IMG/VR virus record: IMGVR_UViG_3300031992_004563
Coordinates: 64,001-128,000 of that record
DNA: 64,000 nt
Strand: one strand, 5' to 3'
Origin: a virus
Taxonomy: Duplodnaviria; Heunggongvirae; Uroviricota; Caudoviricetes
Part shown: positions 1 through 24,569 of the stretch, piece after piece
Position numbering within the stretch: the first letter of the stretch is position 1
Layout: each line of letters starts with the position of its first letter
Position numbers and translations under genes: made by a program
The notes under the pieces: generated by a model
The model's database searches: none
What the model was told of the DNA's origin: nothing
What the model saw: the letters and a program-made list of their open reading frames with translations, nothing else

Positions 1-114
1 AGTAAGAAGATGCAAATTCCGAACAGTGGCTTGGGGAAATATAATTGCATGTTTATTTCCCTATAATCCAATAGTTGAGAAAACAACTTAAATAAATCAA
101 AGTAAATTTACTTC

Positions 115-196
115 AGCGAGATAGTTTAATATTTGCTACCAGAATACTGTGCACATGACACAGTGGATGTCAGTTGAAGTCTGGCTCTCGCAACCA
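115..196 (+). tRNA. Atypical tRNA-Met(CAT)-like RNA with encoded CCA
   Basis: GCGAGA/TCTCGC acceptor with 1:72 mismatch and ACCA end; CTGTG-CACATGA-CACAG anticodon arm with A33 instead of U33; T-arm GTCAG-TTGAAGT-CTGGC. Confidence 0.6.
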
Positions 197-584
197 ATAG
201 TTGATGTAAACAACTTTAAAAACCAATATTAAACCACGAAAAAGACTAGAGTTACAGCGATTTCCAGTAGCCGAGGACGAAGCCGTGTGGGTCACCATTG
301 AAATCAAGACCTCTTCTAGTGAGAAGGGTGACATTACTCTCTGGAATTTACGAGTAATGGGATGGGCCAAAAACAACACTATGTGGTTTATACTTATAGT
401 TGAAGGAAAACAACTTTAAAAAAGACAATAACCTATGAATAATTAGGTGCGTTAAACCAGCTACACAAATGCTGTATGTGATAGTGATAAAATGCAGCCA
501 TGGAGGCTAACAAAAAGATTGCAAGCTTTTTGAATGCATTAATAACTTCCATGATTAAATAGTTGAAGGACATACAACTTTAAA

Positions 585-671
585 AACCCGTTGGTGTTTC
601 AGCGGATACAAACACACAAAGGGAGCGTCGGCCGAGTCCACAGAGGGTTGAACCCGTAGACCCTCAAACTT
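585..671 (+). ncRNA. Structured RNA, paralog 1
   Basis: Shares AACCCGTTG..ACAAAG..GAGRGTTGA..TAGACYCTCAAACTT layout with 882-1007. Confidence 0.55.
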
Positions 672-881
672 ATAGTTGAGGTACAACAACTGAAAAAACC
701 AATAAAAGTATTATAACTGAAGTTATTTTACTACGTTAACATATCCACAACCGTATATCTTGAAAAATAGTGGTGGTTCACAAAACAAATGTTTATCATT
801 CGAATAATTCATAAGTATCCATGGAAGGCTTATGATGCGGATACTGTTAATATTTTATAGTTGAGGGACAACAACTTACCA

Positions 882-1007
882 AACCCGTTGATGGCTCAGT
901 GCTGGAATATGCGAGTTGGAACCATACAAAGTGCGGTTACGTTACGAGGCACCACGAGAGTTGATTGGGTATCAGGTATTTAACCGTCGGACTAGACTCT
1001 CAAACTT
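882..1007 (+). ncRNA. Structured RNA, paralog 2
   Basis: Same layout as 585-671, with a compensatory stem change GAGGGT/ACCCTC to GAGAGT/ACTCTC. Confidence 0.55.
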
Positions 1008-1103
1008 ATAAAATATCTTATTTAAGGGCTGTCTTAAGGACACTTTGGATAGGGTGGAGAATACATAAAAAGAGTATTCGTATAAAATAAGATATTTTAA
1101 TAT

Positions 1104-1177
1104 TGCCCTGTAGCTCAATTGGCTAGAGCGTCTGATTTTGGTTCAGAAGGTTGGGGATTCGAACTCCTCCAGGGCAA
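1104..1177 (+). tRNA. tRNA-Gln(TTG)
   Basis: Cloverleaf; TCTGA-TTTTGGT-TCAGA anticodon arm. Confidence 0.85.
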
Positions 1178-1184
1178 CATAGTG

Positions 1185-1273
1185 AAATATATAGCTCAAT
1201 GATGGCGCACTAAAACATGTAGAGCACCGGCCAGTTAAGTCGGCGATATGAGGTTTGATTCCCATTATATTTT
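1185..1273 (+). tRNA. Atypical tRNA-Asn(GTT)-like RNA
   Basis: AAATATA/TATATTT acceptor, enlarged D-loop, CCGGC-CAGTTAA-GTCGG arm with A33, weak T-arm. Confidence 0.5.
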
Positions 1274-1344
1274 GAATCGGTCACTGATATTGTCAGGAAG
1301 CAATTTCTGGCTGGGATATAAAAGTATCACACTGATAAACTATT

Positions 1345-1650
1345 TTGAAACTTATATATAAATTATATTATATTAGTAAAACTAAAGAGATAAAGAAAAA
1401 TATAGTTAGACCAAATCTGACTGAATTTAGAGAGTTATATCTTAAGTCATTGGAAGAATTTGAGTTATAGCCAATTTATAAAGATTTGATTGAACTATAT
1501 TATGAATTCAAAAAGTCTAAACTTAAGTATAGACTTTCTATAGACTAGTTTGATCTATAGTTTTCTAGTTTAAACTCATCTAAATCTAATAAGTGCATTT
1601 ATATTTTGATTCTTTTGAATTTTTGTTCTAAAAGTTATAAAATTGTATAA
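1345..1650 (+). CDS. Possible hypothetical protein (TTG start, 3 in-frame TAG)
   Basis: Open for 101 codons only under code 15; no homology recognised. Confidence 0.3.
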
Positions 1651-1753
1651 ATGTTAATAGTTTAAATACCTAATAAACAATATTGCATAAGGATGTTCCT
1701 ATTTTATAATCACAAAGTTTGATTGCAGTTCATACTCCTCGCAATATTTAAAT

Positions 1754-1826
1754 TGGGAGATCAGCTAATCGGTTAGGCTTCATCTCTGATAAGGATGCCA
1801 TCCGGGTTCAAGTCCCGGTCTCCCAA
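1754..1826 (+). tRNA. tRNA-Ile(GAT)
   Basis: TGGGAGA/TCTCCCA acceptor; CATCT-CTGATAA-GGATG; GGTTCAAGTCC T-arm. Confidence 0.85.
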
Positions 1827-1870
1827 CAAATGAAACAATTTAATATATTTGTAATATAATATATAAATAA

Positions 1871-1945
1871 CGGGTAGTAGTTCAGTCCGGTTAGAATGCT
1901 GCATTTGGGATGCAGAGGTCGTGAGTTCGAATCTCGCCTACCCGA
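1871..1945 (+). tRNA. tRNA-Pro(TGG)
   Basis: Cloverleaf; CTGCA-TTTGGGA-TGCAG. Confidence 0.93.
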
Positions 1946-2532
1946 CAAAATAATAATTAAAAATATTGTTTAATGCATTTGGGCGAGAAGCATTGAACGA
2001 TTGATGCTCATCCTGAACAATGGTTTGACTCCAATACGTCCATGCTAAACGGCAATATAAAATAAGGATTTATTATTAAATAATAGAAAATAATAATTCA
2101 ATGTCTCTCATGTTAGGCGATCAGGTACAGAGACGGATGATTATAGATAGTATAATTTGTTAATTAAAAAGTCGGTGCAAATCCGGCGTAAAATTTAAAA
2201 AATAATTTAATTTTTGCACATAGTATTAAATTATAATTTGTTGTTAAATAAAAGTGCAATATAAAAATTAAATTATAATACATAAATTTTAAATAGATTT
2301 AAATGAAATTGAATTATTATTTAAATTTCCAAGTAAATTTAAAAATCGCTAATATGCTCGGATAGGTATAAGCATACATTAATTCGATGGCCAAATGATT
2401 AATTATGAGTTGGTGGGTGATTATATTGAAAATTGCATATTGAAAAGGAGCAAATTTAATAGAGAAATATTATAATTATTTGTTTAATTATAATAGAGTA
2501 GCTCGCAACAATTATTTTCCGAATTTTTAAAT

Positions 2533-2675
2533 GGCCCATTCGTCTATCGGCTAGGACGCCAGATTTACGTTGGAAAGAAAACCATACTATTAAAAACTCC
2601 AGTTTGGAATATAATATTTGATTATATTATATTTCACTCATTCTGGAAAGAGCAGTTCGATTCTGCTATGGGCTA
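2533..2675 (+). tRNA. tRNA-Glu with 71-nt insertion in the anticodon loop (CTC or TTC)
   Basis: 5' half GGCCCAT..CCAGATT and 3' half (C)TCATTCTGG..ATGGGCTA flank an insert at about 2566-2637; the anticodon arm matches the neighbouring intact tRNA-Glu. Confidence 0.85.
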
Positions 2676-2699
2676 CTTTACAATTAAAATTAAAAATAT

Positions 2700-2778
2700 G
2701 GATCATTCGAATATCGGTTAGTTCGCCAGATTTTCATTCTGGAAAGGTTTTAGGGTTCGACTCCCACATGATCTACCA
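2700..2778 (+). tRNA. tRNA-Glu(TTC)
   Basis: CCAGA-TTTTCAT-TCTGG; encoded CCA; imperfect T-stem. Confidence 0.8.
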
Positions 2779-2897
2779 AATTAAACTTGCAATCCAACGA
2801 TTACTATATGTAAGTTCGGGATTTGGATGGGCACTACCAAACGGACCGAGAACCGCGTGCATTCGAGATTGGTGACGGTGTGGAGAGACACACTCTT

Positions 2898-2972
2898 GGT
2901 CCGGTAGCTCAGTGGTGTAGTAGCAGGACACTCATAATGTCAAGGTCGGGGGTTCAAATCCCTCTCGGACCA
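2898..2972 (+). tRNA. tRNA-Met/Ile2(CAT)
   Basis: Cloverleaf; GACA-CTCATAA-TGTC. Confidence 0.85.
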
Positions 2973-3309
2973 CGTGAAAAACCGTAGTGTATACTTTATA
3001 TGTTTCACCAAAATGCGGTAACCTCCATATGCCGGCAAACATAAAATATGGCAAGGACAAAGTGAAAACGTATTTTCAGAAAAAAGTTGAAATTATATAC
3101 TGAATGTAATAGAGTCTGGTCATGGCCTGACATTTTGTAGGAGAGTTAACTATTCTGCAAGGTCATATGGAATCAACCCAGTGAAAGACTACGTATATAT
3201 CTCATGAGATTTCAACTTCATTATGGTGCTCTTCTAGAGAGCATGCGGGACAGCGACGTGGCAACCGCAGTGGAAGATTCTCTTCTCCAATAAATACTAG
3301 GCGTCTCCA

Positions 3310-3341
3310 ATAGTTGAAATATGGATAACAACTATAAAACC
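3310..3341 (+). repeat. Seventh copy of the ATAGTTGA..CAACT hairpin motif
   Basis: ATAGTTGAAATATGGATAACAACTATAAAACC, directly after TCTCCA and just before a tRNA-Met. Confidence 0.75.
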
Positions 3342-3350
3342 ATATAATAT

Positions 3351-3422
3351 AGCGGGGTAGAGCAGTGGTAGCTCGTCAGGCTCATAACCTGAAGGCCGGG
3401 GGTTCGAATCCCTCCCCCGCAA
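3351..3422 (+). tRNA. tRNA-Met(CAT), initiator-like
   Basis: 1:72 mismatch, GCGGGG/CCCCGC acceptor, TCAGG-CTCATAA-CCTGA. Confidence 0.9.
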
Positions 3423-3529
3423 CAGAGGCCCATGTCTGAAATGGCTTGCAGGTTCGAGTCCTGTCTTTGGTGTTTCATCATTTTATGGTGTTCCTACCGA
3501 GGTGGCGAAAGTGGTAAACGCGTGGGTAA
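3423..3529 (+). tRNA. Circularly permuted tRNA-Leu-type gene (3' half 3423-3472, 5' half 3496-3529)
   Basis: Long variable arm, GGTTCGAGTCC T-arm and CTTTGGT come before ACCGAGG-TGGCGAAAGTGGTAAACGCG; acceptor strands and TGGGT/GCCCA anticodon stem pair across the halves. Confidence 0.75.
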
Positions 3530-3736
3530 GATTGTTGTTGGCTATAACAACATTAAACAAATATAGCAACTTTAACTAATATATTATGTTAGACACTAAT
3601 TATATTCCTTAAATGAAAAGTAAAGTATTGAGTAATAGAATACATGAGGGTTCGTACCCTGGAGTAGAAATCGACCAAGAAATGCATATAATTATATGGG
3701 TGCAACTCCCATAATAATATTTTAGTTAATCATATT

Positions 3737-3811
3737 GGTATCATCGTTCAACGGCTAGGATGCAACACTGTCACTGTTGTGATGCGGGTTCGATTCCCGC
3801 TGGTACCGCCA
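3737..3811 (+). tRNA. tRNA-Asp(GTC)
   Basis: CAACA-CTGTCAC-TGTTG; encoded CCA. Confidence 0.93.
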
Positions 3812-3848
3812 ATTTAGGTTAAGTCCAAAGATATCCAGGTAGTTTGTA

Positions 3849-4121
3849 AGGATTAAAGAATAGAACTTTAAACACTTCGCTAATATGCTTTTGAGGGAGC
3901 ACATGGAATATCGAATTGTTACCGGCGTAACATGAACCGGGAGTCGTAAGGAACATAGTCCGAAGTCAACAAAATGAGAATTTGATGCGTAAGCCAGGTG
4001 TGCGACGAACTGGACATCGCCTCTCAATAACGCAAACTGGACAAGTGTAACCAGATAGCTGTCGTATATTAGTCTATTCAATGGTATACGTCTCAGAGCA
4101 CTTCGGCGGACCTCTAATCCT
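3849..4121 (+). ncRNA. Candidate ~270-nt structured RNA
   Basis: GC-enriched, non-coding, closed by AGGATTA/TAATCCT. Confidence 0.4.
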
Positions 4122-4554
4122 AAATTTTTAATTTAAACATAAATTTGTAAATCAAATCCTGGGTTAATCGCCGGGTTGACGGTTCGGAAAAAAGACGAAC
4201 TAGGCATGCAATACTGCTAAGAGAAACTTTTTGTATTGCGCGGACTTTGGTGGTTGAAGCGCAGAATGCAGATATTGATTAACTGAAAACCATCTTTTGG
4301 ATATATGTTATTGGTTTAACATATATTCACTCTAAAGCAACACGCATTATCAATTAAGTAGGTTGCTCCATATTAAGTGAAAGTAATAGTTGACTACTAT
4401 ATGATAACTTAAAGAAGAGTTGAAGTGGTACATAGACTAATTAGGGCTAAATAAATTGGTTGACGAGATAAAATGGGAACTAGTCATTCCCATTCTCGAA
4501 AAAGTTAATTCTTTAAGAATTTTTGGAAAACTTTAAAAACGAAAAATTCACCGA

Positions 4555-4629
4555 GGGCCCTTCATATAGTCTGGTTTAGTATGTCAGCTCTGCAAGCTGA
4601 TCACGCCGGTTCGAATCCGGCAGGGTCCA
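4555..4629 (+). tRNA. tRNA-Ala(TGC)
   Basis: G3:U70 pair in GGGCCCT/AGGGTCC; loop TCTGCAA (C33). Confidence 0.75.
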
Positions 4630-5376
4630 CTGATTTTCAATAAGTAACAGAAACGAGGTTGAGGTATAGATGATGGGAAAATATGACAGAGACTAAACAG
4701 AGACGACTTATTGAAACAACACTATAATATCTAATATTCAGTGGGGAGTAGGCTTGACCGAAATTAAAACATCTGACCCATGTTGGTAGTTAGATATTTG
4801 AAATAACGTACGAAAAAGATGAAACAAACTCCACCGTTTCATACATTGGGAGATGATCTTTTGGTGTTGTGGAAGCCTGCAATGGTGTAAGAAAATCGCA
4901 ATGGTTTATCCATATTATAACGTGTAATATGGGATTTAAATTCCACCAATTTTTGAATTATAATTAAATGCGTAGAACGATCAATAAAATGCGACATACG
5001 AAAGTCACATGGGATAAATGGAATTTGCTATTATACCGCAATTCATAAGTATGTTCACTGTGGAGAATCGGGAATCAGTGGTTTAATTATTTACACTTGG
5101 AGATTACGTATCAATATAGGTGTGTATATTTTAAAAGTGACGGTCGGGGTGAAAATCCAAGCGAGTTTAAACGGGAAGGAAGAGAGAAAATTTATCAAGT
5201 CATATGCTCCTGATAAATATACGGCTTTTAAAATAAATTATATCCTGTATGGGTTCTATACACCGAGCACTTATAATCCTCGTCATTATATACTGCTCGT
5301 TAAAATTATTTGGTTTATAGCACTAGTCTTGATTTTTCTTAAATAAATATAATATAAAATACATTTATTAGTTAAT

Positions 5377-6093
5377 ATGTTATATTGTAAATATTGTGGC
5401 AAAGAATGTAAAAATTTAAATTCATTAAGACAGCATGAGATTAGGTGTAAACAAAATCCTAATAGAATTAAAATGGATTTATCAAAATGGAAGTGCCCAC
5501 CAGAAAAAAGAAAATTAGGAACAAAAAATAAAGTTGCTTTAACTAATGGAAATAAAAACAAATATCTATTTCCTAATGAAGCAGAAGAATTTTTACAAAA
5601 TAATTTAGATTGGCATAAAGGATTTACAATTATAAATCATGGTCCAAATTTAGGAATTGCATCCACTCCTGAAAAAGAGGCTGAGAGAAAAAGAAAAATT
5701 TCAGAAACAATGAAGAAAAATCCATTAGCTGGTGGTAGAAGAATAGGTAGTGGACGAGGAAAACAAGGATGGTATAAAGGAATTTATTGTGATAGTTCTT
5801 GGGAACTTGCATTTTTGGTATATTATTTAGATCATAATAAAAATATAAAGAGATGTGAAGAACGAAGAGAATATATTTTTAATAATGAAAAACATACTTA
5901 TATTCCTGATTTTATAACAGATGATGGTATTATAGAAATAAAGGGATATAAAACACAACAATGGAAATCCAAATTAGAACAAAATCCTGATATAAAAGTT
6001 TTATATGAAGATGATATTAAACCATATTTAGATTATGCAACATCATTATATGGCCAGTATTATTGGGAAGTTCTATATGAAAATAAAAAATAA
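5377..6093 (+). CDS. Free-standing homing-endonuclease-like protein (Zn finger, NUMOD3-like, PD-(D/E)XK)
   Basis: CKYC..HEIRC, KRKISETMK, DSSWE, YIPDF..IEIKG motifs; located inside the tRNA array. Confidence 0.75.
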   Translation: MLYCKYCGKECKNLNSLRQHEIRCKQNPNRIKMDLSKWKCPPEKRKLGTKNKVALTNGNKNKYLFPNEAEEFLQNNLDWHKGFTIINHGPNLGIASTPEKEAERKRKISETMKKNPLAGGRRIGSGRGKQGWYKGIYCDSSWELAFLVYYLDHNKNIKRCEERREYIFNNEKHTYIPDFITDDGIIEIKGYKTQQWKSKLEQNPDIKVLYEDDIKPYLDYATSLYGQYYWEVLYENKK

Positions 6094-6097
6094 GTTT

Positions 6098-6182
6098 GGA
6101 GGCATGCCGAAGTGGTCATAACGGCACTGACTTGAAATCAGCTGTGGCTCACGCCCCGGGGGTTCGAATCCCTCTGCCTCCG
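6098..6182 (+). tRNA. tRNA-Ser(TGA)
   Basis: Long variable arm; CTGA-CTTGAAA-TCAG. Confidence 0.92.
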
Positions 6183-6311
6183 CCGTTAAATATAAACCTG
6201 CATAGTAAAGTTCCTATTATAGGTTCGATTCCTAAAATTACTGGATGGTTATTACTTTCCGCGGGTTTAACTTATAATAAAATGCATAAAGTTGTTCCTA
6301 TTTAGTTTATT

Positions 6312-6399
6312 GAAAAGCAGGAAGTCGGGGGTTCGAGTCCCTCTCTCCACACAAATAATATAAAATGTGGAGATAACTCAGATGGTAGAGTGCCCGCCT
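6312..6399 (+). tRNA. Circularly permuted tRNA-Phe(GAA) (3' half 6312-6351, 5' half 6367-6399)
   Basis: GAAAAGCAGG..GGTTCGAGTCC..TCTCCACA precedes GTGGAGATAACTCAGATGGTAGAGTGCCCGCCT; joining gives a perfect GTGGAGA/TCTCCAC acceptor and loop CT-GAA-AA. Confidence 0.85.
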
Positions 6400-6459
6400 A
6401 AACATACACTTCGCGTTTTATCCCCCTTATAATAGTTTGAACATTGCTATTTAAATAAT

Positions 6460-6643
6460 GTTACGCCTTACCCGGTTTAAGTTGAAAGAGTGCCCGGGCT
6501 GTAGATCTAAAAGCCAAAAGCTAATCTATAAAAAACTTATCGCTCCATTTGCACTTGGAAGGTTGAGTGCAATTTTTAATATATCATTACTGAGGTGGAT
6601 AGGAGAAGCATATAAAACCCGAATCCTGAGGAAATGGCGTAAC
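6460..6643 (+). ncRNA. Candidate structured RNA
   Basis: Closed by GTTACGCC/GGCGTAAC; internal hairpin TTGCACTT..GAGTGCAA. Confidence 0.4.
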
Positions 6644-6995
6644 GACAAAAAGTTAGAAGGGCCGAAGAAACCGTCGTTGCTTGATATACGGTGTGGAAAG
6701 GCGTGGTAAGTAATGATTATTTTTATAATTCTCAAACCTTGTGGGTGCCAGAAAACACCACATGCAGAAAGTATTTAATATTGCTAGCGATTAAAGAAAT
6801 TTGGTTCGTTATTGAGAATTTTTTCTTTAATAAACATTATCGAATCCATTTAAGTAATATTCGATATAACTGAGAATAATTACATTAATATTAAATGGCG
6901 TTGCTACTCATCTGGTATGGAGGCATACTGAGTACCTTGGTCTATTACGAGAAGATAGGCCGGTGTTTAAATTTAAGATAATGTTTATTTTTAAT

Positions 6996-7078
6996 GGGAG
7001 AGTTCCTAATGCGGTAATTAGGACCAGACTGTAAATCTGGCGGCTTAGCCTTCGGGGGTTCGAATCCCTCCTCTCCCA
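6996..7078 (+). tRNA. tRNA-Tyr(GTA)
   Basis: CCAGA-CTGTAAA-TCTGG; long variable arm. Confidence 0.92.
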
Positions 7079-7099
7079 CAGTTTTTAATAAACTTATAT

Positions 7100-7174
7100 G
7101 GTGTCCGTAGCTCAATTGGTAGAGTGCTGGATTGTGGTTCCAGTGGTTCTCGGATCATACCCGAGCGGGCACCC
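7100..7174 (+). tRNA. tRNA-His(GTG)
   Basis: G-1; CTGGA-TTGTGGT-TCCAG. Confidence 0.9.
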
Positions 7175-7307
7175 CTACTTAGGATGTACACCAGGCAGAC
7201 TGTTGAGTCATATAAACAGTATAATCCTATTTTGAATGTTGGTTTTAGAGTGAGGGGTTCTGAAAGACTTAAAGAGAACTCACCTACTGGATGCATACAG
7301 TGATTAT

Positions 7308-7375
7308 CGCCACGGGAATCGTAGTTGATTTTTAGAGCCCTTAGCTAAGGTGTCGGAGCGTTACCGGCCGTGGTG
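7308..7375 (+). ncRNA. Anticodon-less tRNA-like RNA
   Basis: CGCCACG/CGTGGTG acceptor and T-arm GTCGG-AGCGTTA-CCGGC; anticodon arm replaced by CCTT-AGCT-AAGG. Confidence 0.5.
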
Positions 7376-7387
7376 TCAAAATTACAT

Positions 7388-7469
7388 GGGCTTATGGCGT
7401 AATAGCGAGCCGCGCCAGACTTAGGATCTGGTTCCGAAAGGAGTAAGGGTTGGAGTCCCTTTAAGCCCA
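7388..7469 (+). tRNA. tRNA-Leu(TAG)
   Basis: CCAGA-CTTAGGA-TCTGG; long variable arm. Confidence 0.9.
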
Positions 7470-7483
7470 CATTTAAAAAGAAT

Positions 7484-7677
7484 AATCATTCGATATTTTT
7501 ATGATGTTATATTAAGGGTTCAAATCCCAATTGGGGGCTTGTCGACGAACAAGATATGTATCTTATATAGCTATACTCAAAGTCCCTCGCATTTTTCGAG
7601 TGTTATATAAGTAAGGTCGGACATTATAAAGAAATTGTTAAAACCGTGGAGAGGTGCACATCAAAACGTGAATGATT
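7484..7677 (+). ncRNA. Candidate structured RNA with a T-loop-like hairpin
   Basis: Closed by AATCATTC/GAATGATT; contains GGGTTCAAATCCC. Confidence 0.35.
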
Positions 7678-7680
7678 AAT

Positions 7681-7756
7681 GGTCCTTTAGCTCAGCTGGT
7701 ATTAGAGCACTTGGCTTACATCCAAGGGGTCGTAGGTTCGAATCCTACAGGGACCA
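7681..7756 (+). tRNA. tRNA-Val(TAC)
   Basis: CTTGG-CTTACAT-CCAAG. Confidence 0.93.
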
Positions 7757-7850
7757 CAATAAGAATAAGAAAAAATAAAGGATTCCAAACAGTTATTCAA
7801 AGTATCTTTTCTTTTTATGTTGTTTTTCTTGGTTCTAACTTTGAATATTT

Positions 7851-7921
7851 GCAGGTATAGCACAACAGTCGTGCACCAGTTTGCCATACTGGGGATCCCG
7901 GGGCAGCACCGGGTATCTGCT
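7851..7921 (+). tRNA. tRNA-Gly(GCC)
   Basis: CCAGT-TTGCCAT-ACTGG; atypical T-loop. Confidence 0.8.
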
Positions 7922-8035
7922 CAACATTGCAGGTTCTTATTAGAATGAAAGTCTGGAAAATCCAGTGCTAATAAGGTGAAATTAAAATTGTAAGAGACTG
8001 CAAAGGGGTTGAATAATGTGGTCAACCCATAAAAA

Positions 8036-8111
8036 CTAGGTGTAGAGGAGCCCGGTTTATCTCGCGTGAATTGGAATCACGAGCACGCAGGTTCGAATCC
8101 TGCCATCTAGA
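8036..8111 (+). tRNA. tRNA-Pro(TGG), second copy
   Basis: CGTGA-ATTGGAA-TCACG; CTAGGTG/CATCTAG acceptor. Confidence 0.85.
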
Positions 8112-8114
8112 CTT

Positions 8115-8319
8115 CGCGAATTAGTGTAATATGTGCCCGTAAAATTTCAGATGTACGGTTAACACAACGGCCAATGTTAATTAGTCTGAATGGTGTTCCT
8201 TTAGTATGAAATGTATATACAATGTACAGTGTGTATACAAAGTAAGAAACAGGTTGGGAGGATCAGAGCACGGCACCCGGAGATGGTGTTAGTTACGTGG
8301 AAGTCGTAGTTCGCAACCA
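8115..8319 (+). ncRNA. Enlarged tRNA-like RNA ending in ACCA
   Basis: C-GCGAAT/GTTCGC-A-ACCA acceptor, D-stem GTGT/ACAC, T-arm TACG-TGGAAGT-CGTA; about 125 nt in place of the anticodon arm. Confidence 0.5.
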
Positions 8320-8793
8320 ATAAATTAATATTCGAGGGTCTACGAGTGAATTAACACGGAGAGCCAAACCAAAAACAACCGAGTAGGTTTGGAGAGAGTA
8401 GAGATGGTGTGGCGTAAGTGGACAGGTTGTAGTTTGTGATATGCCTAGAAGTGGTGGCCTGCTGGAAAATGGTGGCATGTAGAATATTGATTTTTAATTT
8501 TTTAATGTGAAGGATAACACAATAAAACCCTTGTTGCTAACATTCTTGGGCAGGTAATGAAAATGGCTAGGTGTATGACCGGTGACTTGGTGAAATTCCA
8601 ACATTCCTAGTGAAGAAAAATGATTCGCGGTTAATTTTTCTTAAAGGTCATTTTTAAATATAATCACGATACTAAGACGCGTACCGACGGGTCAGTTCCA
8701 GTATTCTGGTATAAAACTCTCATATATGTCCAAATATATTTTGGTGCACCTGAAGTTGGATGAAGAGAGGAACATTAGTATGTGTGGTTTTTT

Positions 8794-8865
8794 GCCCCGG
8801 TGGTGAAATGCATATCACGAGTGACTACGGATCACTTATTCTGGGTTGGAATCCCAGCTGGGGTA
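8794..8865 (+). tRNA. tRNA-Arg(ACG)
   Basis: AGTGA-CTACGGA-TCACT. Confidence 0.9.
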
Positions 8866-8925
8866 CTATAGAAACAAAGTTCATTTAGAGCCTATAATAA
8901 TTAAAATAATAAAACTATATTATAT

Positions 8926-9471
8926 ATGAGAATCGATTCATTAGAAAGCATCTGGAATAACTTGGGGTATGTTATTCAGAAACATAATGATTATAAAAAG
9001 ACTAAGAGAAATCTTAGAAAGCTGGTTTATAATTGTTCTCCAAAACATATGAAAGATGGTTCAATAAAAAACACTTTTATTGAAGTTGGATATCTTTATT
9101 TAACAAGTGCTGTTAAAGATGATTCTCAAGGTTTTGTATGGTTTGATTGTACTGATCATATTAATTATGATGAAGAACATAGAATTATATTCCCAACAAT
9201 GCCTGCACAATTTTGGGATAAATTAGTTGGAAAGCATAATACTAATATTGCTCAACTTTATAATGATAAAACAAAAGAATATTTGCATAAAGATTCTAAT
9301 ATAGAATGGAATATTGTAAAGGGCCAAGCATTATTTACTACAAGGCAAGAAGCAGAGGATTATATTAAACAATGTGAAAATGGTGAAATTGAGCTTCCTG
9401 AATTCTTTTTAAAAGTTGAAAGAGTTATGACTAATCCAACACGAGAAGATTATGAGAACATTGGAAAATAA
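8926..9471 (+). CDS. Hypothetical protein
   Basis: 181-aa ORF with phage-like composition. Confidence 0.8.
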   Translation: MRIDSLESIWNNLGYVIQKHNDYKKTKRNLRKLVYNCSPKHMKDGSIKNTFIEVGYLYLTSAVKDDSQGFVWFDCTDHINYDEEHRIIFPTMPAQFWDKLVGKHNTNIAQLYNDKTKEYLHKDSNIEWNIVKGQALFTTRQEAEDYIKQCENGEIELPEFFLKVERVMTNPTREDYENIGK

Positions 9472-9483
9472 ACAACAATAATT

Positions 9484-9723
9484 ATGGAACTTAAAGATAT
9501 TGTAAAAGGCCAAGCCGATTTATCTTGTGTAATTGCAGGAGGAATTGCTGAATATATTTTAACAGATATAAATGGAATCAAATATCAATTGCAAATTAAT
9601 TTGGCAGATAAACATGATGTTGGTGAAACTGCTACATTCCAAACACATTATGATAAAGCAATTATTTTAATGAGATGGATTCGTAGAGCAATTGAAAAAG
9701 ATGAATTAATTAAACTTAATTAA
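9484..9723 (+). CDS. Hypothetical protein
   Basis: 79-aa ORF in tandem with the previous gene. Confidence 0.75.
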   Translation: MELKDIVKGQADLSCVIAGGIAEYILTDINGIKYQLQINLADKHDVGETATFQTHYDKAIILMRWIRRAIEKDELIKLN

Positions 9724-9731
9724 TAATTCTT

Positions 9732-9804
9732 GAGCCGGTAGCTCAGATGGTAGAGCAGCAGACTCTTAATCTGCGGGCCGTGGGTTCGAGTCCCACCCGG
9801 CTCA
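9732..9804 (+). tRNA. tRNA-Lys(CTT)
   Basis: GCAGA-CTCTTAA-TCTGC. Confidence 0.95.
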
Positions 9805-9809
9805 CAAAT

Positions 9810-9883
9810 GGCGAGGTAGCTCAGTTGGTTAGAGCGCAGCATTCATAATGCTGAGGTCGTGGGATCGTGACCCTCCCTCGCTA
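9810..9883 (+). tRNA. tRNA-Met(CAT)
   Basis: CAGCA-TTCATAA-TGCTG. Confidence 0.88.
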
Positions 9884-9890
9884 CATAAAT

Positions 9891-9964
9891 ATCCTATTAG
9901 CCCAATCGGTAGAGGCAATAGTTTCAAAAACTATACAGTGTTGGTTCGAATCCAACATGGGATA
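9891..9964 (+). tRNA. tRNA-Leu(CAA), short variable arm
   Basis: ATAGT-TTCAAAA-ACTAT; GGTTCGAATCC T-arm. Confidence 0.8.
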
Positions 9965-10032
9965 CAAAAGATAAATGACATTTATGGTTATTGCACATCC
10001 AAAAAGCATGTATAAAAATAAAAATAAATGTT

Positions 10033-10359
10033 ATGAAGAAGATTTTTTTAATTATGTGTCTTCTATCATCATTTATCTTTTGTAATGCCGAACCTTCGTA
10101 TGAAAGTTCAACAAAAAAGGCAAAAGAATCACGCATAGAAGTGGTGAATGAGAAGACAGTTATTTTCAAAAATGTCGTAAAAATAGAAATAATTACTAAA
10201 GATAAAAATCAAATAACATATGTATATGATTTGAAAAACAGTAAATTAGTAATTGTTGCTAAAGGTGCATTTGAGATTGATACAAAAATGGGTGATTATT
10301 TAGTTCAATCTTCTAAGAAAATAACAAAAACCGAATATGATTTTATTGAAGAAATTTAA
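10033..10359 (+). CDS. Hypothetical protein with signal peptide
   Basis: MKKIFLIMCLLSSFIFCNA N-terminus. Confidence 0.7.
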   Translation: MKKIFLIMCLLSSFIFCNAEPSYESSTKKAKESRIEVVNEKTVIFKNVVKIEIITKDKNQITYVYDLKNSKLVIVAKGAFEIDTKMGDYLVQSSKKITKTEYDFIEEI

Positions 10360-10582
10360 TCATATTTATTTATGTTAAATATAATTAAATATATTTATGA
10401 ATAATTATATTTTTATATTTAACAAAATTTTTGAAATAAATATAAAAAGAAAATAATTTTTAAGAGGTGGTATCCTTAAAAACTATTTTTAGAAATATAA
10501 GTTATAATTATAAAGCATTTTAATGTTTTATTATACAAGATACCACTTTTAAGTATAATAATCATTTTAATGCTTTTATTTT

Positions 10583-11785
10583 ATGAAGTTAGTTGAACAA
10601 CATATTATAAAATCTAATCATTAGTTTTACAAAGAACTTGATAATTTATGCTTTTTATCTAAGAATCTATATAATCAAGCTCTTTATAGGATTAGACAAT
10701 AGTTTTTTGAAGATAAAACTTTTAAAAATTATTATGATTTAAATAGAGAGCTTCATGATGAAAACTAGATAGACTATAGATCACTTCCATCTAATACATC
10801 ACAAGAAACATTAAAACTAGTTAACCAAAATTATAAATCATTTTTCTAGAGTTTAAACAAACAAATTAAAGGCGTTAAAATTCCTAAATATTTAGATAAA
10901 ATTAAAGGAAGATAGATAGTTGTTTATAATTATTCAACAATATGTGGAAAAAAAGATTTAGGATTTTTTAAAATTCCAAAAACTAATTTACAATTTAAAA
11001 CTAAATAGAAAAATATTAAGCAAGTTAGAATAGTTCCTAAAAATAATTATATAGTTTTAGAAGTTATTTATGAAGCTTCTATCAAAGAATTATTAAAAGA
11101 TAATAAAAGATATATGTCTATTGATTTAGGAATTGATAATTTAGCTAGTTGTTCTAGTAATGTAACTAAATCTTTTATAATCAATGGAAAACCTGCCAAA
11201 TCAATAAATCAATATTATAATAAAAAGAAAGCTAATCTTCAATCTGAATTAAAACTTAAACAAAATAAAAATACATCAAAGCAAATATAGAATTTAACTT
11301 TAAAGAGAAACAATAAAATAAAAGATTATTTTCATAAAGCATCCAGATATATTGTTAATCAATTAGTTAACCAATCCATTAATACACTTATAATAGGAAA
11401 GAATGATGGATGGAAACAAGAGACAAATCTAGGTGTTGTTAATAATCAAAATTTTGTAAATATTCCTCATTAGATGTTTATAAATCAACTAAAATATAAA
11501 TGTCAATTAGAAGGAATAAATGTCATTGAACAAGAAGAAAGTTATACTAGCAAAGTAAGTTTTTTTGATAATGACTATATTCCAACTTATAAACAAAATG
11601 ATGAACTATTTAATCCATCTGGAAAAAGAATCAAAAGAGGTTTATATAAAACTAAAAATAATTTATTAATTAATGCTGATATAAATGGTTCATTAAACAT
11701 AATGAGAAAATATTTAAATGTAGTTTGTGATGACTTAATTAGTTTAACAAATAGAGGGTTTGTGATTAATCCAGTTAAAATTTAG
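10583..11785 (+). mobile_element. tnpB: IS200/IS605-family TnpB RNA-guided nuclease, 400 aa under code 15
   Basis: MKLVEQHIIK..SKNLYNQALY, SIDLGIDNL (RuvC-I), QEESYTS, NADINGSLNI; about 8 in-frame TAG; no tnpA; inverted repeat GTGGTATC/GATACCAC upstream. Confidence 0.9.
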
Positions 11786-11854
11786 TTTTAACAAATAAAA
11801 ACTTGTGAATAGTTTTTAATATCATTTGATTCCAAATGTATCAGAAATTTATAA

Positions 11855-12028
11855 GAATTTATGCAGTCCATCGCGCCCATTCCAAAAGATATAAGAGGTG
11901 AGGAAGTTCAGGACACTTATTTGGAAGTGAAAGTCTAAGTATAGGAGGTTACCCAAATTACTGCCCCATGGTAAGACGAATAGTTAAATGATGGAAATAG
12001 GTACAGAATCCTGGCTATTACATAATTC
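11855..12028 (+). ncRNA. rnpB: Minimal RNase P RNA
   Basis: GAGGAAGTTCAGGA (11900) and ACAGAATCCTGGCT (12003) match CR-I/CR-V and form P4 with a bulged U; termini GAATT(T)ATG/CATAATTC pair as P1. Confidence 0.8.
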
Positions 12029-12197
12029 ATATATTTAATAAAAATAAATGTTTAATAATTATGATACCAACATTAACAGTTTACATGCTAATTGCTATAC
12101 CTATTATCTATATAGCAATTAAAAAATAAATAAAATGGTGTTATAATTAAAATTTACAACACCATTTATTTTTATTTAAAATTAAAACCTAAACACA

Positions 12198-12596
12198 ATG
12201 AATTACAACATTCAAGAAAAGAAACACTATTTCATTGTAAATGGCGTTAAAGTTCATTGGAATTTTAAATTATTGCCTAAAGGTTTTGAAGCAATAACAT
12301 TATTTGGGCATGTTTATGATGTTCATCCAAAAAATGAATTAAAAACATTTTTAGAAACCTATTGGGGAAGAGTAATGGTTAATCATGAAAGAATTCATAT
12401 AATGCAAGCCGAATCTTTTAAACTTAGATATTTTGCATTTTATATAATATATCTATGGTGGTGGATAAAAGGTTTGTTTAAATATAATTTTAGTAATTTT
12501 GAATCATACTATAAAATTCCATTTGAAAGAGAAGCTTATCATAATGAAAAAGATTTTTATTATGATGAAGTACATTGGAAAGAATTTAAATGGTGA
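12198..12596 (+). CDS. Hypothetical protein with HExxH motif
   Basis: NHERIH..IPFEREAY. Confidence 0.75.
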   Translation: MNYNIQEKKHYFIVNGVKVHWNFKLLPKGFEAITLFGHVYDVHPKNELKTFLETYWGRVMVNHERIHIMQAESFKLRYFAFYIIYLWWWIKGLFKYNFSNFESYYKIPFEREAYHNEKDFYYDEVHWKEFKW

Positions 12597-12640
12597 TTTT
12601 TGTAATGGTCTTTACAAAAATGATCATTTATTTTTTATTT

Positions 12641-12715
12641 GCGGGTGTAGCTCAGTTAGCTTAGAGCGTCTGACTTCCAATCAGAAGGCCCTGGGTTGAA
12701 GTCCCAGTACCCGCA
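12641..12715 (+). tRNA. tRNA-Gly(TCC)
   Basis: TCTGA-CTTCCAA-TCAGA. Confidence 0.92.
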
Positions 12716-12800
12716 CGAATGTTAAGGTAGCGCCTTAACTAGTTGCAGTTATGAGATCGCGGAATCTGCAATGAATAAAAATAATAAAAGCCGCGTACAT

Positions 12801-12886
12801 GTCTCCGTAGCTCAGTTGGTTCCGCAAGGCTTGAGAGCACCCGCCTTTTAAGCGGGGGGTCGTGGGTTCGAATCCCACCGGGGACA
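12801..12886 (+). tRNA. tRNA-Lys(TTT) with enlarged D-loop
   Basis: CCCGC-CTTTTAA-GCGGG; D-loop carries a CC-GCAA-GG mini-hairpin. Confidence 0.88.
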
Positions 12887-13142
12887 CAAAAATCCAATTT
12901 AATTTGGTTGACTAAATTTCAATAAGAAATTCGCTACAAACACATAGCGTTACGATTGCTGTTTGACTTGAATATTCAAAACGAATATTAGATTTGTTAA
13001 TTAGATTAAATTAACACTATTTAGGACTATATTAGATTGCTATGAAAAATGAGTGATTCTAATGATATGGCGAGGAGTCCTTCACGAGGTCAGTGTTTTA
13101 GAGCCATATCTTATTTTTAATCTCAATACGCAAGTATATGAA

Positions 13143-13175
13143 AAAGGAGACTGGAATGAGTCTCCTTTATTTTTT
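13143..13175 (+). terminator. Intrinsic terminator
   Basis: AAAGGAGACT-GGAATG-AGTCTCCTTT then a T-run. Confidence 0.75.
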
Positions 13176-13189
13176 ATTTTTATTAAATT

Positions 13190-13240
13190 AACTTCTATTT
13201 TTTAGATTACATAAAAAATTATAATTTTGTATCGTTAATT
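13190..13240 (+). promoter_or_regulatory. Class 1 promoter (AACTTCTATTTTTTAG..TAATTTTG)
   Basis: Recurs at about 18766, 28379, 30038 and 61534; TAnnTTTG is the Bacteroidetes -7 element. Confidence 0.75.
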
Positions 13241-13257
13241 TAAAAAAGATAAAAATT

Positions 13258-14100
13258 ATGGCATTTATCAAAAATGAAAGTCCAAAAATTGGCGATTGGG
13301 TAATCACACAGAAATCACACTCTGCATGTGCTGGTACAATGACTAAAGGCAGTCGTGTAAAAATCACTGACGTTGATCCAATGAGAGGTTATTCAATTGT
13401 TGATGAGGAAGGAAATCGTCTTTGTGAAATTGGGTGGATAATTTAAAACATAAAATTATGGAAGGTTGGTTAGCACGAGATAAATCTGGTTCTTTATGTT
13501 TTTATATATATGAACCATATAAGTCAGCTGCTGGTTTTTGGAAGCCAGTTGAGGATGAACCATTAGGAAACCAAGTAGATGAATGTGAAGCATCTAAAAA
13601 TATTAAATGGGAAGATAATCGAGCCACTCATGTAAAAGTTAATTTTGAAATTTTGTAATAATATGAAAACATCTATTAGAAAAAATGCATATGCTGTTCC
13701 AAGTGGAAGTTGGGATATCGCTGAACGAGTTCATGTTTCCGGAAAACATGGACGTGATAGAAAACAACATTATCTTTCCAAACAAGCGCGTTTGGCTGTT
13801 AAAAATGGAAAGGTTGATGGTGTTGATCTTAAAAATATTGAGGAGTAAATAACTACAAAATAAATTTTAAAAATGGATTCAAAACGACAACAAGAAATTA
13901 AAAATGAAATGGCAGGCCGAATAATTGATGCCTGTGGTAGCACCGGGGTTTTAGCGGCAGTGGATAACGATAAACTGGAAGGCGATGTTAAAGTTCGTCA
14001 TCAGAAAGCTATGGCAGAAGCTAAAAAGCTTACCGGTCGAAAGAAACGAATTGATCCTAATGTTCAAGCAATATTTGCACGAATGTATGGATTAATTTAA
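13258..14100 (+). CDS. Four small hypothetical genes (13258-13446, ~13458-13658, ~13663-13848, 13873-14100)
   Basis: Tightly packed ORFs after a class 1 promoter. Confidence 0.7.
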
Positions 14101-14221
14101 AGCAAAGTAGACTTTTTCAGAAAATAGTCTATAATAAATAATAAGAATTAATTTTGTATAAGGTTTATTCAAAAGGTTGAATTTATATACCTTACAAAAT
14201 TTATTTTGATCTTTGATTTAT

Positions 14222-14309
14222 GGCGCGGTGGTGGAATTGGTATACACGAGGGACTTAAAATCCCTTGGGGGCCTATTGCTCCTTGAGAGTTCGAGTCTCT
14301 CCCGCGCTA
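14222..14309 (+). tRNA. tRNA-Leu(TAA)
   Basis: AGGGA-CTTAAAA-TCCCT; long variable arm. Confidence 0.93.
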
Positions 14310-14317
14310 CAATCATT

Positions 14318-18830: not shown

Positions 18831-19232
18831 ATGAAGTTAGGTTATGTGTATCATGATGGTGGCCGTTCTAATTACTTCAAGGCCGGTAATGTTGGGGATT
18901 GTGTAATTAGAGCGCTTGCTATAATTAAAGGAATGAATTACAAAGAGGTATATGATACTGTTAAAAGTATCATTGGAGAAAGTCCACGCAATGGTGTTCC
19001 ACGTAAAAAATTGCAAAATGTTATGAAACATTTTGGTGGTGTATGGGTACCATTATCTGGAATAGGCACAGGTTGTAAAGCACATTTGGCTGCATATGAA
19101 ATTCCAATGTCAGGAAAAATCATATGTAATGTTAGTAAACATGTAACAGCTGTTATTGATGGAGTAAATTATGATACATATGATTCCAGCCGAAATGGAA
19201 CACGATGTGTATATGGATATTGGAAATTTTAA
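18831..19232 (+). CDS. Conserved phage protein (possible Cys-His peptidase fold)
   Basis: GDCVIRALA..HVTAVIDG..YDTYD. Confidence 0.75.
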   Translation: MKLGYVYHDGGRSNYFKAGNVGDCVIRALAIIKGMNYKEVYDTVKSIIGESPRNGVPRKKLQNVMKHFGGVWVPLSGIGTGCKAHLAAYEIPMSGKIICNVSKHVTAVIDGVNYDTYDSSRNGTRCVYGYWKF

Positions 19233-19243
19233 ATAATAAATTT

Positions 19244-19906
19244 ATGAATAATGAACGAATAAAATATCCTAGAACATTTCATTTGCCTTATTCACAATCA
19301 AAGACAGATGATGATAAGACATTGCCAAATGATGATCAATTCAAAGGAATGGAAGTCGTGGTAACAATCAAGATGGATGGTGAAAATACAACTGTCTATC
19401 CTGATGGTTATATTCATGCTCGTTCTCTTGATGGAACTGGCTATACATGGCAAAATTGGTTGAAGTCATATGTTTGGGAATTTTGTGGCGCACTTGCAGA
19501 TGATGAACGAATAATTGGTGAAAACTTGTATGCAAAACATTCAATTGGTTATAAGTTCAATGATATAAAAGATACATTCCAGGTATTTGCAATGTGTTTT
19601 AATTTTGATGGTGTTGATTATTTCTATGATTGGGACTATATTGAAATGTTTTGTGAAGGTTATGGATTAAAACATGTTGATGTAATATATAGAGGTATTT
19701 ATGATAAAGAAAAAATCATGGAGGCCTTTGAAAATAAGAAAAAAGAACTAGCAGAACAAGGACAAGATATTGAAGGTTTTGTTGTTCGTGATGCTTATGA
19801 ATTTCCAACAAGTGAATTTCAAAAACACGTTGCAAAGTTTGTTCGCGCAAATCATGTTCAAACTGATAAACATTGGAGAGAAACTTGGACTAAAAATGAA
19901 TTTTAA
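19244..19906 (+). CDS. ATP-dependent RNA ligase family protein
   Basis: KYPRTFHLP, KMDGEN (motif I), GENLYAKHSI, EGFVVR, AKFVRANHVQTD. Confidence 0.88.
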   Translation: MNNERIKYPRTFHLPYSQSKTDDDKTLPNDDQFKGMEVVVTIKMDGENTTVYPDGYIHARSLDGTGYTWQNWLKSYVWEFCGALADDERIIGENLYAKHSIGYKFNDIKDTFQVFAMCFNFDGVDYFYDWDYIEMFCEGYGLKHVDVIYRGIYDKEKIMEAFENKKKELAEQGQDIEGFVVRDAYEFPTSEFQKHVAKFVRANHVQTDKHWRETWTKNEF

Positions 19907-22098: not shown

Positions 22099-24177
22099 AT
22101 GAAAACTTATATTGTATCATGTATATCATATTATACAGGCTTTGATGATAAATTTTATTTAGAAAAAGTACATCCATCATTTTTTGAAGGAAATTGTAGA
22201 GTTGATTTAGAATGGACGGATGACATATATAAAACACGATGTTTTTGTGATAAACAAACCGCTAATTATTTTATTAAAGAAATTAAAGCTAAATTAAACA
22301 ATAAATCATCTATCGTACGTAGTCTTGGATTACATGATACAATAAAAGATTTAAAGGTTCAAAAAATTGAAATTAATATTAAAGAATTGGATTAAATAAT
22401 GAAAAATAAATTTAAAAATTTTATAAAAAGAATTAAATTTCTTGATTTAATAATATTTCCAATTGTAATTGCACTAATTGGATGTGCAATATATTTGAAA
22501 CCGGAGGTTTTAATATATTTGTTTGTTGGTATAATATTTTTGTATATATATGAGCGATTAAAATGAATTAATTATGGAGGAACACAGTAAAACTGCTGGT
22601 GCACTTATATATGATAGTATATATAGTTTTGCACTTAAACAATTTCATTTAAATCATGGGAAATTGTGTAATATTAAACCAAAACAAAGTAAACGCAAAC
22701 ATTAAATTATGTTAACTGCATTAGGATCTTGGATATATTGGTGTATATGGCCATTAATATGTACAATAATTGTATATTTAATAGTAACACATGGAGATTT
22801 AAACAGATGTGTAATTGATCATGTGAAAGGAAGTTTAATAATTTTGCCTTTTTCATATTTAATAGGCGTATTAACAGGAATACTTGTTTTTATGGTGCCA
22901 TTTTGTATGGCATATAGTGATGCTACAGTTAAAACTATAGCAGTTAATGAAATGTCTATTAAATCTTTATCAAGTACAGATAAATCGTTTCAAATTGGCC
23001 AAAGTGATATTGATGGAGAAAAGTCATATATTGTATTAGTATATAAAGATAGTCATTATGATCCAAAAGAAGTACGTGCTGATAAATTTAAAATTGTATG
23101 TACAGATTCAATACCTCCAAAAATATCTATAGTTATAAAAGATTGTACAACACCAAAAAAGTTTAAATGGCTATTTAATGAAATGATAATGGATAATGTT
23201 GAAGAATTTCAATATGGTACAATATATGTGCCAAAAAGATATACATTAATGCCATATAAAAAATAAGAAAAATAAATTTAATAATTATGATACCATACGA
23301 TAAAGAAGATGTAAAAACCTTTCATGAAAAAGGATTAATGTGGATGGTTTTTGGAATATTAATTCCATCAGATACATTTGCAAAACTTAAAGAATATGAA
23401 GATTCCATTAGAATCTTAGGAAAACTTCAAAAATCTATTCCTGAAGCAGATATTAATCAAGAAGATAAGGATAAGTATATTGAAAAAGCAAATAAAGTTA
23501 TGGATCTTCTTCAAAAGGAATATGATGAAAAGAAGAAAAAGATTGAGAAAAGAAAGAAATATACTAAAAAGCATAAATCTCAACAACTAAAAGAGATTAA
23601 AGTAACAGATGGAAAGCTCTATTTGTAAAAATATTATTTAGAATGATAATGTTTATAGTTCAAAGAAAAAATTAGAACAAATAATTAAAGAATTTCCAAT
23701 ATTATATAAAGGAGTAAATTTTATAACATATTTAGAAAGTTTACAATATTGGGCAAAAAACATTTGCCCCTTTTTACAATATAATTTTTAAATTATATTT
23801 TATTAAATATGAATATTGATGAACAACGTTATTCTCAAGATGAGATTAAAAAACATACAGATAAAAAATTAAATGAATTAATTGATTATAAAATTATTGT
23901 TTCATTAGATTATTATTTAAATGTATTACCAAATAATCCATTTTACTGGTCATATTTTTGTGAAGGCACAATGAAGGGAAAGCCAGATATAATACATGGC
24001 GATGATGTTTACTTTATAGGCGCAATAATTGATGCAACTTCAAAAATTGGAGTATATGTATTTGCTGATGAATTTAACAAATATCATGAAGAACAAATAC
24101 AAAAATATAGAGAACAATGTAAAAGAGAAAGAGAAGAACGATTAAAACAATATAATGAAGCAAAACTAGAAAAATAA
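22099..24177 (+). CDS. Hypothetical genes (22099-22395, 22709-23266 membrane, 23287-23628, 23809-24177)
   Basis: Co-directional ORFs. Confidence 0.7.
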
Positions 24178-24567: not shown

Positions 24568-24569
24568 TT

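Follow-up and report, generated by a model that had tools for sequence, protein, structure and literature searches.

A permuted tRNA-Phe-like sequence in a jumbo phage tRNA array lies within a conserved RNA handle and is probably a tRNA mimic

The two swapped tRNA-Phe halves found in a phage tRNA array are the insert of a larger RNA of ~140 nt (6280-6418). The complete element is probably a protein-bound tRNA mimic with a YrlA-like layout and not the precursor of a translating tRNA. The original prediction had placed a circularly permuted tRNA-Phe(GAA) gene at 6301..6410, bounds that cut off the handle, and had it either matured by a cut-and-ligate route or acting as a nicked decoy. The cut-and-ligate route is unlikely and a mimic is preferred because the halves are enclosed by a conserved handle, a normal tRNA-Phe gene is present and strain variants break tRNA pairs. 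The decoy alternative was close to the reading preferred here. On the best reading, the RNA belongs to an uncatalogued RNA-protein family that has no Rfam family.

The window, that is, the whole stretch of 64,000 nucleotides that was analysed (C1:64001-128000), is part of a 380.5 kb record estimated to be 76% complete. The phage is a Lak-related, code-15 (TAG-recoding) jumbo phage, because the coding density rose from 0.62 to 0.86 once TAG was read through and a window protein was 44-46% identical to Lak phage proteins. The called ORFs of the whole record contain 703 in-frame TAG codons, and no tRNA with the anticodon CTA was found in the record by ARAGORN at default settings; this tRNA may be intron-split or may lie in the missing part of the genome. 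The sequencing runs that best contained the phage were from sheep gut. An ATP-grasp RNA ligase gene (window 19205-19906) and an enzyme of the CCA/poly(A)-polymerase family are encoded by the phage, which also has an ordinary one-piece tmRNA at C1:269450-269849, while a search of the whole record found no RtcB. T4 Rnl1 had no match either, in a search whose positive control also matched nowhere. Other genes observed in the window encode a PARG-type ADP-ribose hydrolase (51542-52381), a formate/nitrite transporter (24561-25232), AsnA (28722-29684) and an IS605 TnpB-like protein (10583-11791) that is open solely with TAG readthrough and has a copy, 83% identical, at another site in the related genome G001. 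An array of ~30-nt repeats (TAGTTGA...ACAACTT-AAAA) with varied, often structured spacers, at window 60-1010 and at L005 4360-5550, is common to this phage and G001/G006.

The element sits within a tRNA array of 21 ARAGORN genes (window 1104-14310). The permuted copy had been described as the only Phe tRNA of the window, and ARAGORN indeed calls none there; however, an intact tRNA-Phe(GAA) is located elsewhere in the genome, at C1:46703-46775, where Rfam detected it with 45.8 bits. It has an unusual T-loop and was missed by ARAGORN. The T-loop GGCAG(T/C)AC occurs in this tRNA and in the one at window 7851-7921, which Rfam likewise detects and ARAGORN misses. D-loop insertions were seen in tRNA-like genes at window 1185-1273 and 12801-12887, and anticodon-loop introns in tRNA genes at C1:46439-46680, C1:46781-46961 and window 2533-2676. 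The first of these introns carries an acceptor-stem/T-arm mini-domain at its end, as in Lak introns, and several tRNA introns of the relatives G001 and G002 start with a common short hairpin. A homing-endonuclease-like ORF (window 5377-6093; PHROG endonuclease, E 4e-9) lies immediately 5' of tRNA-Ser, and ORFs resembling it split tRNA arrays in relatives.

The order of the halves was read directly from the sequence and is as predicted, with the 3' half upstream of the 5' half and a 15-nt linker between them (Table 1). The 7/7 acceptor stem and the normal D and T arms were also seen, and the Phe ancestry was borne out by a D-arm region that the element has in common with one canonical phage tRNA-Phe. 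Three further details held only in part. A perfect CT-GAA-AA loop could be rebuilt by rejoining the halves, but the break is not fixed at 33/34, since a complete 7-nt loop, TTGAAAA (6310-16), is already present on the 3' side alone. The rejoined tRNA is well paired in its acceptor stem, but the anticodon stem has 4 of 5 pairs, with a mismatch of C6395 and A6319 (29:41) that had gone unmentioned. Lastly, the GTTTA and TAAAC flanks are able to pair, but the predicted pairing probability was at most 0.04 for this stem, as it was for the anticodon stem, and 0.81-1.0 for the acceptor stem.

Table 1. Positions, in the window, of the handle RNA, its tRNA-like insert and related elements.
Feature	Position	Strand	Details
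Handle 5' strand	6280..6300	+	P1 6280-85; unpaired AUA 6286-88; P2 6289-95 (U6293 bulged); UCCUA 6296-6300
Neck joining handle and tRNA body	6301..6311	+	GTTTA 6305-09, pairable with TAAAC 6399-6403
tRNA 3' half	6312..6351	+	read from sequence; GAA 6312-14; AA (A37 A38); discriminator A6351
Parts of the 3' half	6317-21; 6322-26; 6327-43; 6344-50	+	anticodon-stem strand; variable loop; T arm; acceptor strand
AT-rich linker, 15 nt	6352..6366	+	read from sequence; closes acceptor stem
tRNA 5' half	6367..6399	+	acceptor 6367-73; D arm 6376-91; anticodon-stem strand 6393-97; CT (C32 U33) 6398-99
Handle 3' strand	6405..6418	+	UAC; P2' 6408-11; unpaired C6412; P1' 6413-18
Sister handle RNA, directly upstream	6195..6267	+	T-arm-only insert; orthologues in G002, G006
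Third handle RNA	1680..1747	+	short hairpin insert; just before tRNA-Ile; similar copies in G001, G006
Second permuted tRNA-like element	3426-3535, conserved tail to ~3725		no handle; directly after tRNA-fMet

A loose scan for a T-arm, an acceptor hairpin and a D-arm in that order matched 53 of 10,200 shuffled controls (0.5%). In the whole genome the same scan found four places: this element, two tandem-tRNA junctions and the second permuted element. The permuted layout is not due to chance. An exact-pattern search for the halves returned no loci in viral contigs and none in metagenomes, and matched one ordinary tRNA-Phe. Several other candidates were rejected. Of the BLASTN matches to isolated phages, the one inspected (H2) was the junction of two intact tandem tRNAs. 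The halves do not belong to two adjacent intron-containing tRNAs, as there was no matching 5' exon within 6184-6312 and no T-arm from 6400 to tRNA-Tyr. A group I intron or known ribozyme was set aside, with no Rfam match to either at the element. Neither a sigma-70 promoter nor a terminator was found at 6050-6520, the Bacteroidales promoter type being outside the model used.

The second permuted element begins with an anticodon-stem 3' strand, followed by a long variable arm, the T arm (3448-64), the acceptor 3' strand and a 24-nt linker. The acceptor 5' strand, a class-II D arm and ~190 conserved nucleotides lie 3' of the linker, without an anticodon loop. The element is kept in G001 with compensatory changes in the acceptor and T stems and a ~90-nt linker, and its layout recalls that of a two-piece tmRNA.

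The handle that encloses the halves of the first element is made up of P1, GC-AUA facing a single C, a 4-bp P2 extended by GU/AC, and then UCCU. Its motif is GC-AUA-N4-GUUCC ... AC-N4-C-GC. The family form, GC-A(U/C/A)A-N4/5-GUUCC with P1 and P2 paired, is present in this element, with predicted pairing of 0.6-0.99 for P1/P2 and 0.88-0.99 for the outer stem. Three handle RNAs were found in this genome, all in the tRNA array and not beside the gene of the partner protein described below.

Fifty-five handle copies in 33 loci were collected from phages. The four outer P1 pairs, which had not been used in selection, form in 187 of 220 cells compared with 109 +/- 6 in 5,000 partner shuffles (kinship ignored; five hits without a 3' partner dropped). 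The handle thus shows base-pair covariation. Of 26 whole records searched, 21 contain a loose form of the 5' motif, with as many as 13 matches in one genome, chance matches included, and 15 of 16 matches in pattern scans for handles with long inserts were due to chance. In prokaryote genomes at least 120 loci had the 5' motif, with no convincing full handle among the matches listed, using a pattern tuned to this phage. A literature search retrieved no paper on the handle family or on its pairing with a TerD protein, although large RNA-motif catalogues may contain the motif.

The inserts carried by the handle are diverse. Most of the 97 distinct inserts are plain short hairpins, and 81 are 60 nt or shorter. 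Anticodon stem-loop look-alikes were found in 12 of the 81 short inserts, one of them really a T-arm and several of them related copies, compared with a mean of 2.3 and a maximum of 7 in shuffled sequences. Their anticodons include Lys, Cys, Ser and Phe, and L221 reads CT GAA GA. tRNA bodies make up the longer inserts. At L209 and L239 there are permuted bodies with a 4-nt loop capping the acceptor stem, for which the YrlA model scored 46.1, the best seen in the family, and 40.7 bits; permuted bodies with a linker or an encoded CCA occur in the second copy at L209, in L239 and in L287, and normal-order tRNA bodies also occur inside the handle. In L239, bodies are also joined to the handle at position 26/27 or through the variable arm. 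In L197, L207, L272 and L285 the permutation is reversed, such that a free-ended tRNA has its anticodon loop replaced by a loop-closed handle. Among nine bodies fused at the anticodon position, Y32-U33 was read by eye in only three, and for most of the family no anticodon loop could be rebuilt. At L239 (258-1136) the partner gene is preceded by an array of seven or more handle RNAs, three with a permuted tRNA body and one with a normal tRNA body, which makes this the most suitable locus for experiments on the family.

The partner protein was reached by searching with the handle pattern. In G004, two handles precede an unannotated gene for a protein of ~620 residues, which has 707 homologues at E<=0.001. 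It has no sequence match in Pfam, PHROG or PDB and no clear match in NCBIfam (1 of 56 members, E 0.003). When 71 loci were de-duplicated to 62 distinct viral loci, a complete handle was found on the strand of the partner gene in 38, upstream of the gene in 36; the opposite strand had none, and neither did the reversed controls. In the other 24 loci no handle was seen within about 1.5 kb. The AlphaFold2 model of the partner (pLDDT 85.8) has a helical N-terminal region and a C-terminal beta-sandwich domain. The modelled C-terminal domain is a TerD fold, matching TerD with Z 9.3, an rmsd of 3.0 over 134 aligned residues and a Foldseek probability of 1.0. The helical region had no clear fold match, the best (Z 7.2) being on a helical hairpin. 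Ro60 was absent from the matches listed in all fold searches of the partner, in which top Foldseek rows with a TM-score <=0.1 were disregarded. By ESM features the nearest named clusters were TerD and Prok-RING_4 (PF14447)/SCO0854-like helical+TerD proteins, with scores of 0.83-0.90. PF14447 is presumably the family of 'ROT/TROVE-like repeats'; the fold search of the partner gave no confirmation of that identity.

The partner gene was not found in this 76%-complete record. The relative G001 encodes the partner at 22289-24187 (E 2e-204), ~31 kb to the left of the start of this contig, and is collinear with the contig only from G001 ~54,900 (contig ~1,000) onwards; the partner gene therefore falls in a segment absent from the record and is probably in the ~120 kb of this genome that were not assembled.

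Strain variation was followed in contigs from other studies. An RNA-library contig is identical over 5489-7527, and each of three further studies supplies a contig that covers the element with few differences (X5, X6 and X7). Between 6279 and 6419, X5 differs at five positions, namely T6310A, C6352T, T6368C, C6395A and G6415A. T6368C breaks acceptor pair 2:71, C6352T lengthens the closed acceptor stem, C6395A swaps the 29:41 mismatch for another mismatch and G6415A improves P1 by turning a U-G pair into U-A. In X7, G6328T breaks a G-U pair of the T stem, whereas in X6 both halves are unchanged. In one low-depth contig of run X6, both handle ends flank 101 different letters, although the flanks are short and the evidence is weak. 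X7 and X10 have different upstream neighbours. In this small sample the shape is kept across strains and decoding-grade pairing is not strictly kept. That tRNA pairs are lost in the variants, whereas the handle is preserved or even strengthened, counts against a cut-and-ligate tRNA gene. No orthologue of the permuted insert was found in the related genomes G001, G002 or G003, all of which are fragments. G002 and G006 retain the sister RNA and have, at the position of the permuted insert, a degenerate, normal-order tRNA-like sequence.

In contigs from RNA runs (X3, X4 and X21) no junction of 6399 to 6312 was found: the linear form was seen in X3, and X4 and X21 do not reach the element. Assemblies of long RNA cannot show a modified tRNA of 76 nt, so that this result speaks neither for nor against splicing. 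The RNA contigs of two studies start at 6444/6445 (X4, depth 206; X21), just downstream of the element, a weak hint of an abundant ncRNA of ~550 nt at 6444-~7000. That region matched no Rfam family and had short matches only, in G002 and G006. Part of it, 6841-6936, is also present in other contigs.

On the preferred reading, the RNA would be transcribed within the tRNA-array operon and then released, and the helical+TerD protein would bind the handle. Host RNase P would cut at 6366/6367, a site predicted from the 7-bp acceptor stem and from the available text on the YrlA of M. smegmatis, which describes an acceptor stem of the same length, cleavage by RNase P and gain of CCA (PMC4201824). The linker would be trimmed from its 3' side towards 6351, CCA would be added by a host or phage enzyme, and the product would be a two-piece RNA held together by the handle. 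Host proteins that act on tRNA would then meet the elbow and the acceptor end of a tRNA on the particle, together with an exposed loop that bears GAA. This display is the weakest step and, granted the rest, is somewhat less likely than not. Most likely the RNA would serve to decoy or tether anticodon nucleases or other defences directed at tRNA. The arrangement may have arisen by capture of the 3' half and the 5' half of tRNA genes inside a handle gene. Alternatively, the handle may be a cis-acting element or a signal for processing.

The possibility was considered that the tRNA body is a drifting passenger, made of captured halves of tandem tRNAs, and that the handle alone is needed for the job while the body decays or merely stabilises the RNA. 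The preponderance of plain hairpins among the inserts, the pair-breaking variants in two of the three other fully spanning DNA strains (X5 and X7) and the degenerate sequence beside a retained sister RNA in G002 and G006 are in its favour. However, strains from sheep, cattle and goat, with different upstream neighbours, show little damage to the D loop, the T loop or the acceptor stem, and tRNA parts recur inside the handle in many independent forms. A passenger is accordingly an unlikely, though not a negligible, explanation.

A true permuted tRNA-Phe gene was also considered. The handle would be a split intron (permuted intron-exon) that is excised, the phage RNA ligase would join the anticodon loop, and the linker at the acceptor end would be opened by RNase P plus 3' trimming. 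The rejoined halves would give a canonical loop (CT + GAA AA) with a 7/7 acceptor stem and A73, of the Phe type, which most family members could not do. The phage has the RNA ligase and CCA-family genes, and the available text on Lak phages describes unexplained tRNA introns, in the anticodon loop, in these relatives (PMC6784885). These points count against the mimic as well. Furthermore, in L197 the handle interrupts the anticodon loop of a tRNA that ends in CCA, and removal of the handle would rebuild CT TCC AA with U73. Against this, a splicing signal is expected at one position, where it restores a loop, and the handle family does neither, which argues against splicing: six of the nine anticodon-position fusions are without Y32-U33, in other members the fusion point is 26/27 or the variable arm, or the handle surrounds an entire tRNA, and inserts of at most 60 nt predominate. 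In addition, the intact Phe gene elsewhere in the genome, the variants that break pair 2:71 and a T-stem pair, the 29:41 position that is mismatched here and in X5 too, and the absence of RtcB from the record weigh against it. Splicing, including the opening of the linker in this way, is improbable. The broader form of the same idea, in which the handle is a protein-guided excisable module both here and in reverse-permuted members of the L197 type, with the anticodon loop ligated by the phage enzyme, is equally doubtful. If splicing were true, this would be the first circularly permuted, re-spliced phage tRNA gene and a natural permuted intron-exon system, in which tRNA-Phe is stored in a form that offers host nucleases no closed anticodon loop. 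The original statement that no phage example is known stands for spliced permuted tRNAs, on which a literature search found no paper (most subscription journals lay outside its scope), but not for permuted tRNA-like RNAs in general, since YrlA RNAs of this kind are reported in 22 phages in the available text of PMC4201824.

That the element is a genuine YrlA, bound to a Ro60 (Rsr) protein of the host, is very improbable. The permuted layout is the same, the Rfam YrlA model (RF02553) gave a weak match over model positions 24-84, and TROVE was found in B. thetaiotaomicron, a Bacteroidales control genome. However, the score of 26.8 bits is below the cut-off of 69, and the Ro60-binding motif GNCGAAN0-1G is absent from 6279-6419 and present in only 1 of the 97 family inserts. 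PF05731 (TROVE) had no match in the whole 380-kb record, in which the positive controls matched, nor in G001, G003 or Lak-A1, so that the same strand has no Ro60/TROVE gene within about 4 kb, and the handle tracks a different protein, the helical+TerD partner. An assembly artefact, the misassembly that had been allowed for, can be dismissed: the record is metagenome-assembled, but an RNA-library contig and DNA contigs from three further studies, each a single contig, span the element in the same order.

The low YrlA score and the missing Ro60-binding motif also count against a mimic of YrlA-like layout, as do the unchanged halves in X6, the partner gene absent from the record and the 24 of 62 partner loci without a handle. 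Taken with these reservations, large gut phages appear to hold a modular RNA-protein system in which a single handle presents exchangeable parts of tRNA (elbow, T-arm, anticodon loop, acceptor end) and is paired with one unnamed protein, a system built like Ro60/YrlA but from different parts. If the RNAs decoy or steer host defences that cleave tRNA, this would be a new counter-defence route and would allow the role of the tRNA-like domain in Y RNAs to be tested directly. The present copy is informative because it is still readable as tRNA-Phe and so shows how mimics arise from tRNA genes. When swapped tRNA halves are met in phage genomes, the flanks should be checked before they are filed as permuted tRNA genes.

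The element can be compared with several known systems. In algal and archaeal permuted tRNA genes the termini form a bulge-helix-bulge junction. The likeness to them lies in the 3' half that precedes the 5' half, the halves rejoinable to a cloverleaf (here with one anticodon-stem mismatch), the flanks pairable beside the anticodon stem and the linker that closes the acceptor. However, the junction here would be an internal loop of 7 nt (6310-16) by 1 nt (6398) on a weakly predicted stem, and the flanks are part of a larger handle family. Theirs is a working gene that needs a splicing endonuclease and gives a translating tRNA, whereas this phage has a normal Phe gene. Two-piece tmRNA has a permuted gene, is processed by RNase P and CCA addition, and remains a two-piece RNA without ligation. 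The element resembles it in the permuted gene and in the two-piece product of the proposed route, but has neither a tag reading frame nor pseudoknots, and the tmRNA of the phage is an ordinary one-piece molecule. Permuted tRNA genes are known from red and green algae and Thermofilum, according to the available text of 10.1101/312249. The anticodon-loop introns of Lak megaphages (PMC6784885) share with the element the phage group and the anticodon-loop insertion, and such introns occur in this genome; in the available text they are in normal-order tRNAs, hold an acceptor-stem/T-arm mini-domain and are without the handle motif, and Lak-A1 had no exact match to the handle 5' motif. The partner shares the C-terminal TerD fold, as modelled, with Prok-RING_4 (PF14447)/SCO0854-like proteins, but differs from them in having no Pfam, PHROG or clear NCBIfam match.

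The closest likeness is to YrlA (RF02553). In YrlA, as described in the available text of PMC4201824 and 10.1101/312249, and in this element alike, the ends pair in a long stem and a T arm leads to a loop-closed acceptor and then a D arm, so that a permuted tRNA-like domain lies inside a terminal stem. The 7-bp acceptor stem recalls M. smegmatis YrlA in particular, both RNAs are found in phages, and the tandem sister RNA, which has a T-arm only, is like YrlB. The terminal motif here is nevertheless that of the handle, without GNCGAAG, and the element keeps anticodon letters, whereas YrlA in the same text is without an anticodon loop. YrlA is linked to the TROVE+vWA protein Ro60, whereas the handle is linked to a helical+TerD protein and its family also includes the reverse permutation and bare anticodon stem-loops.
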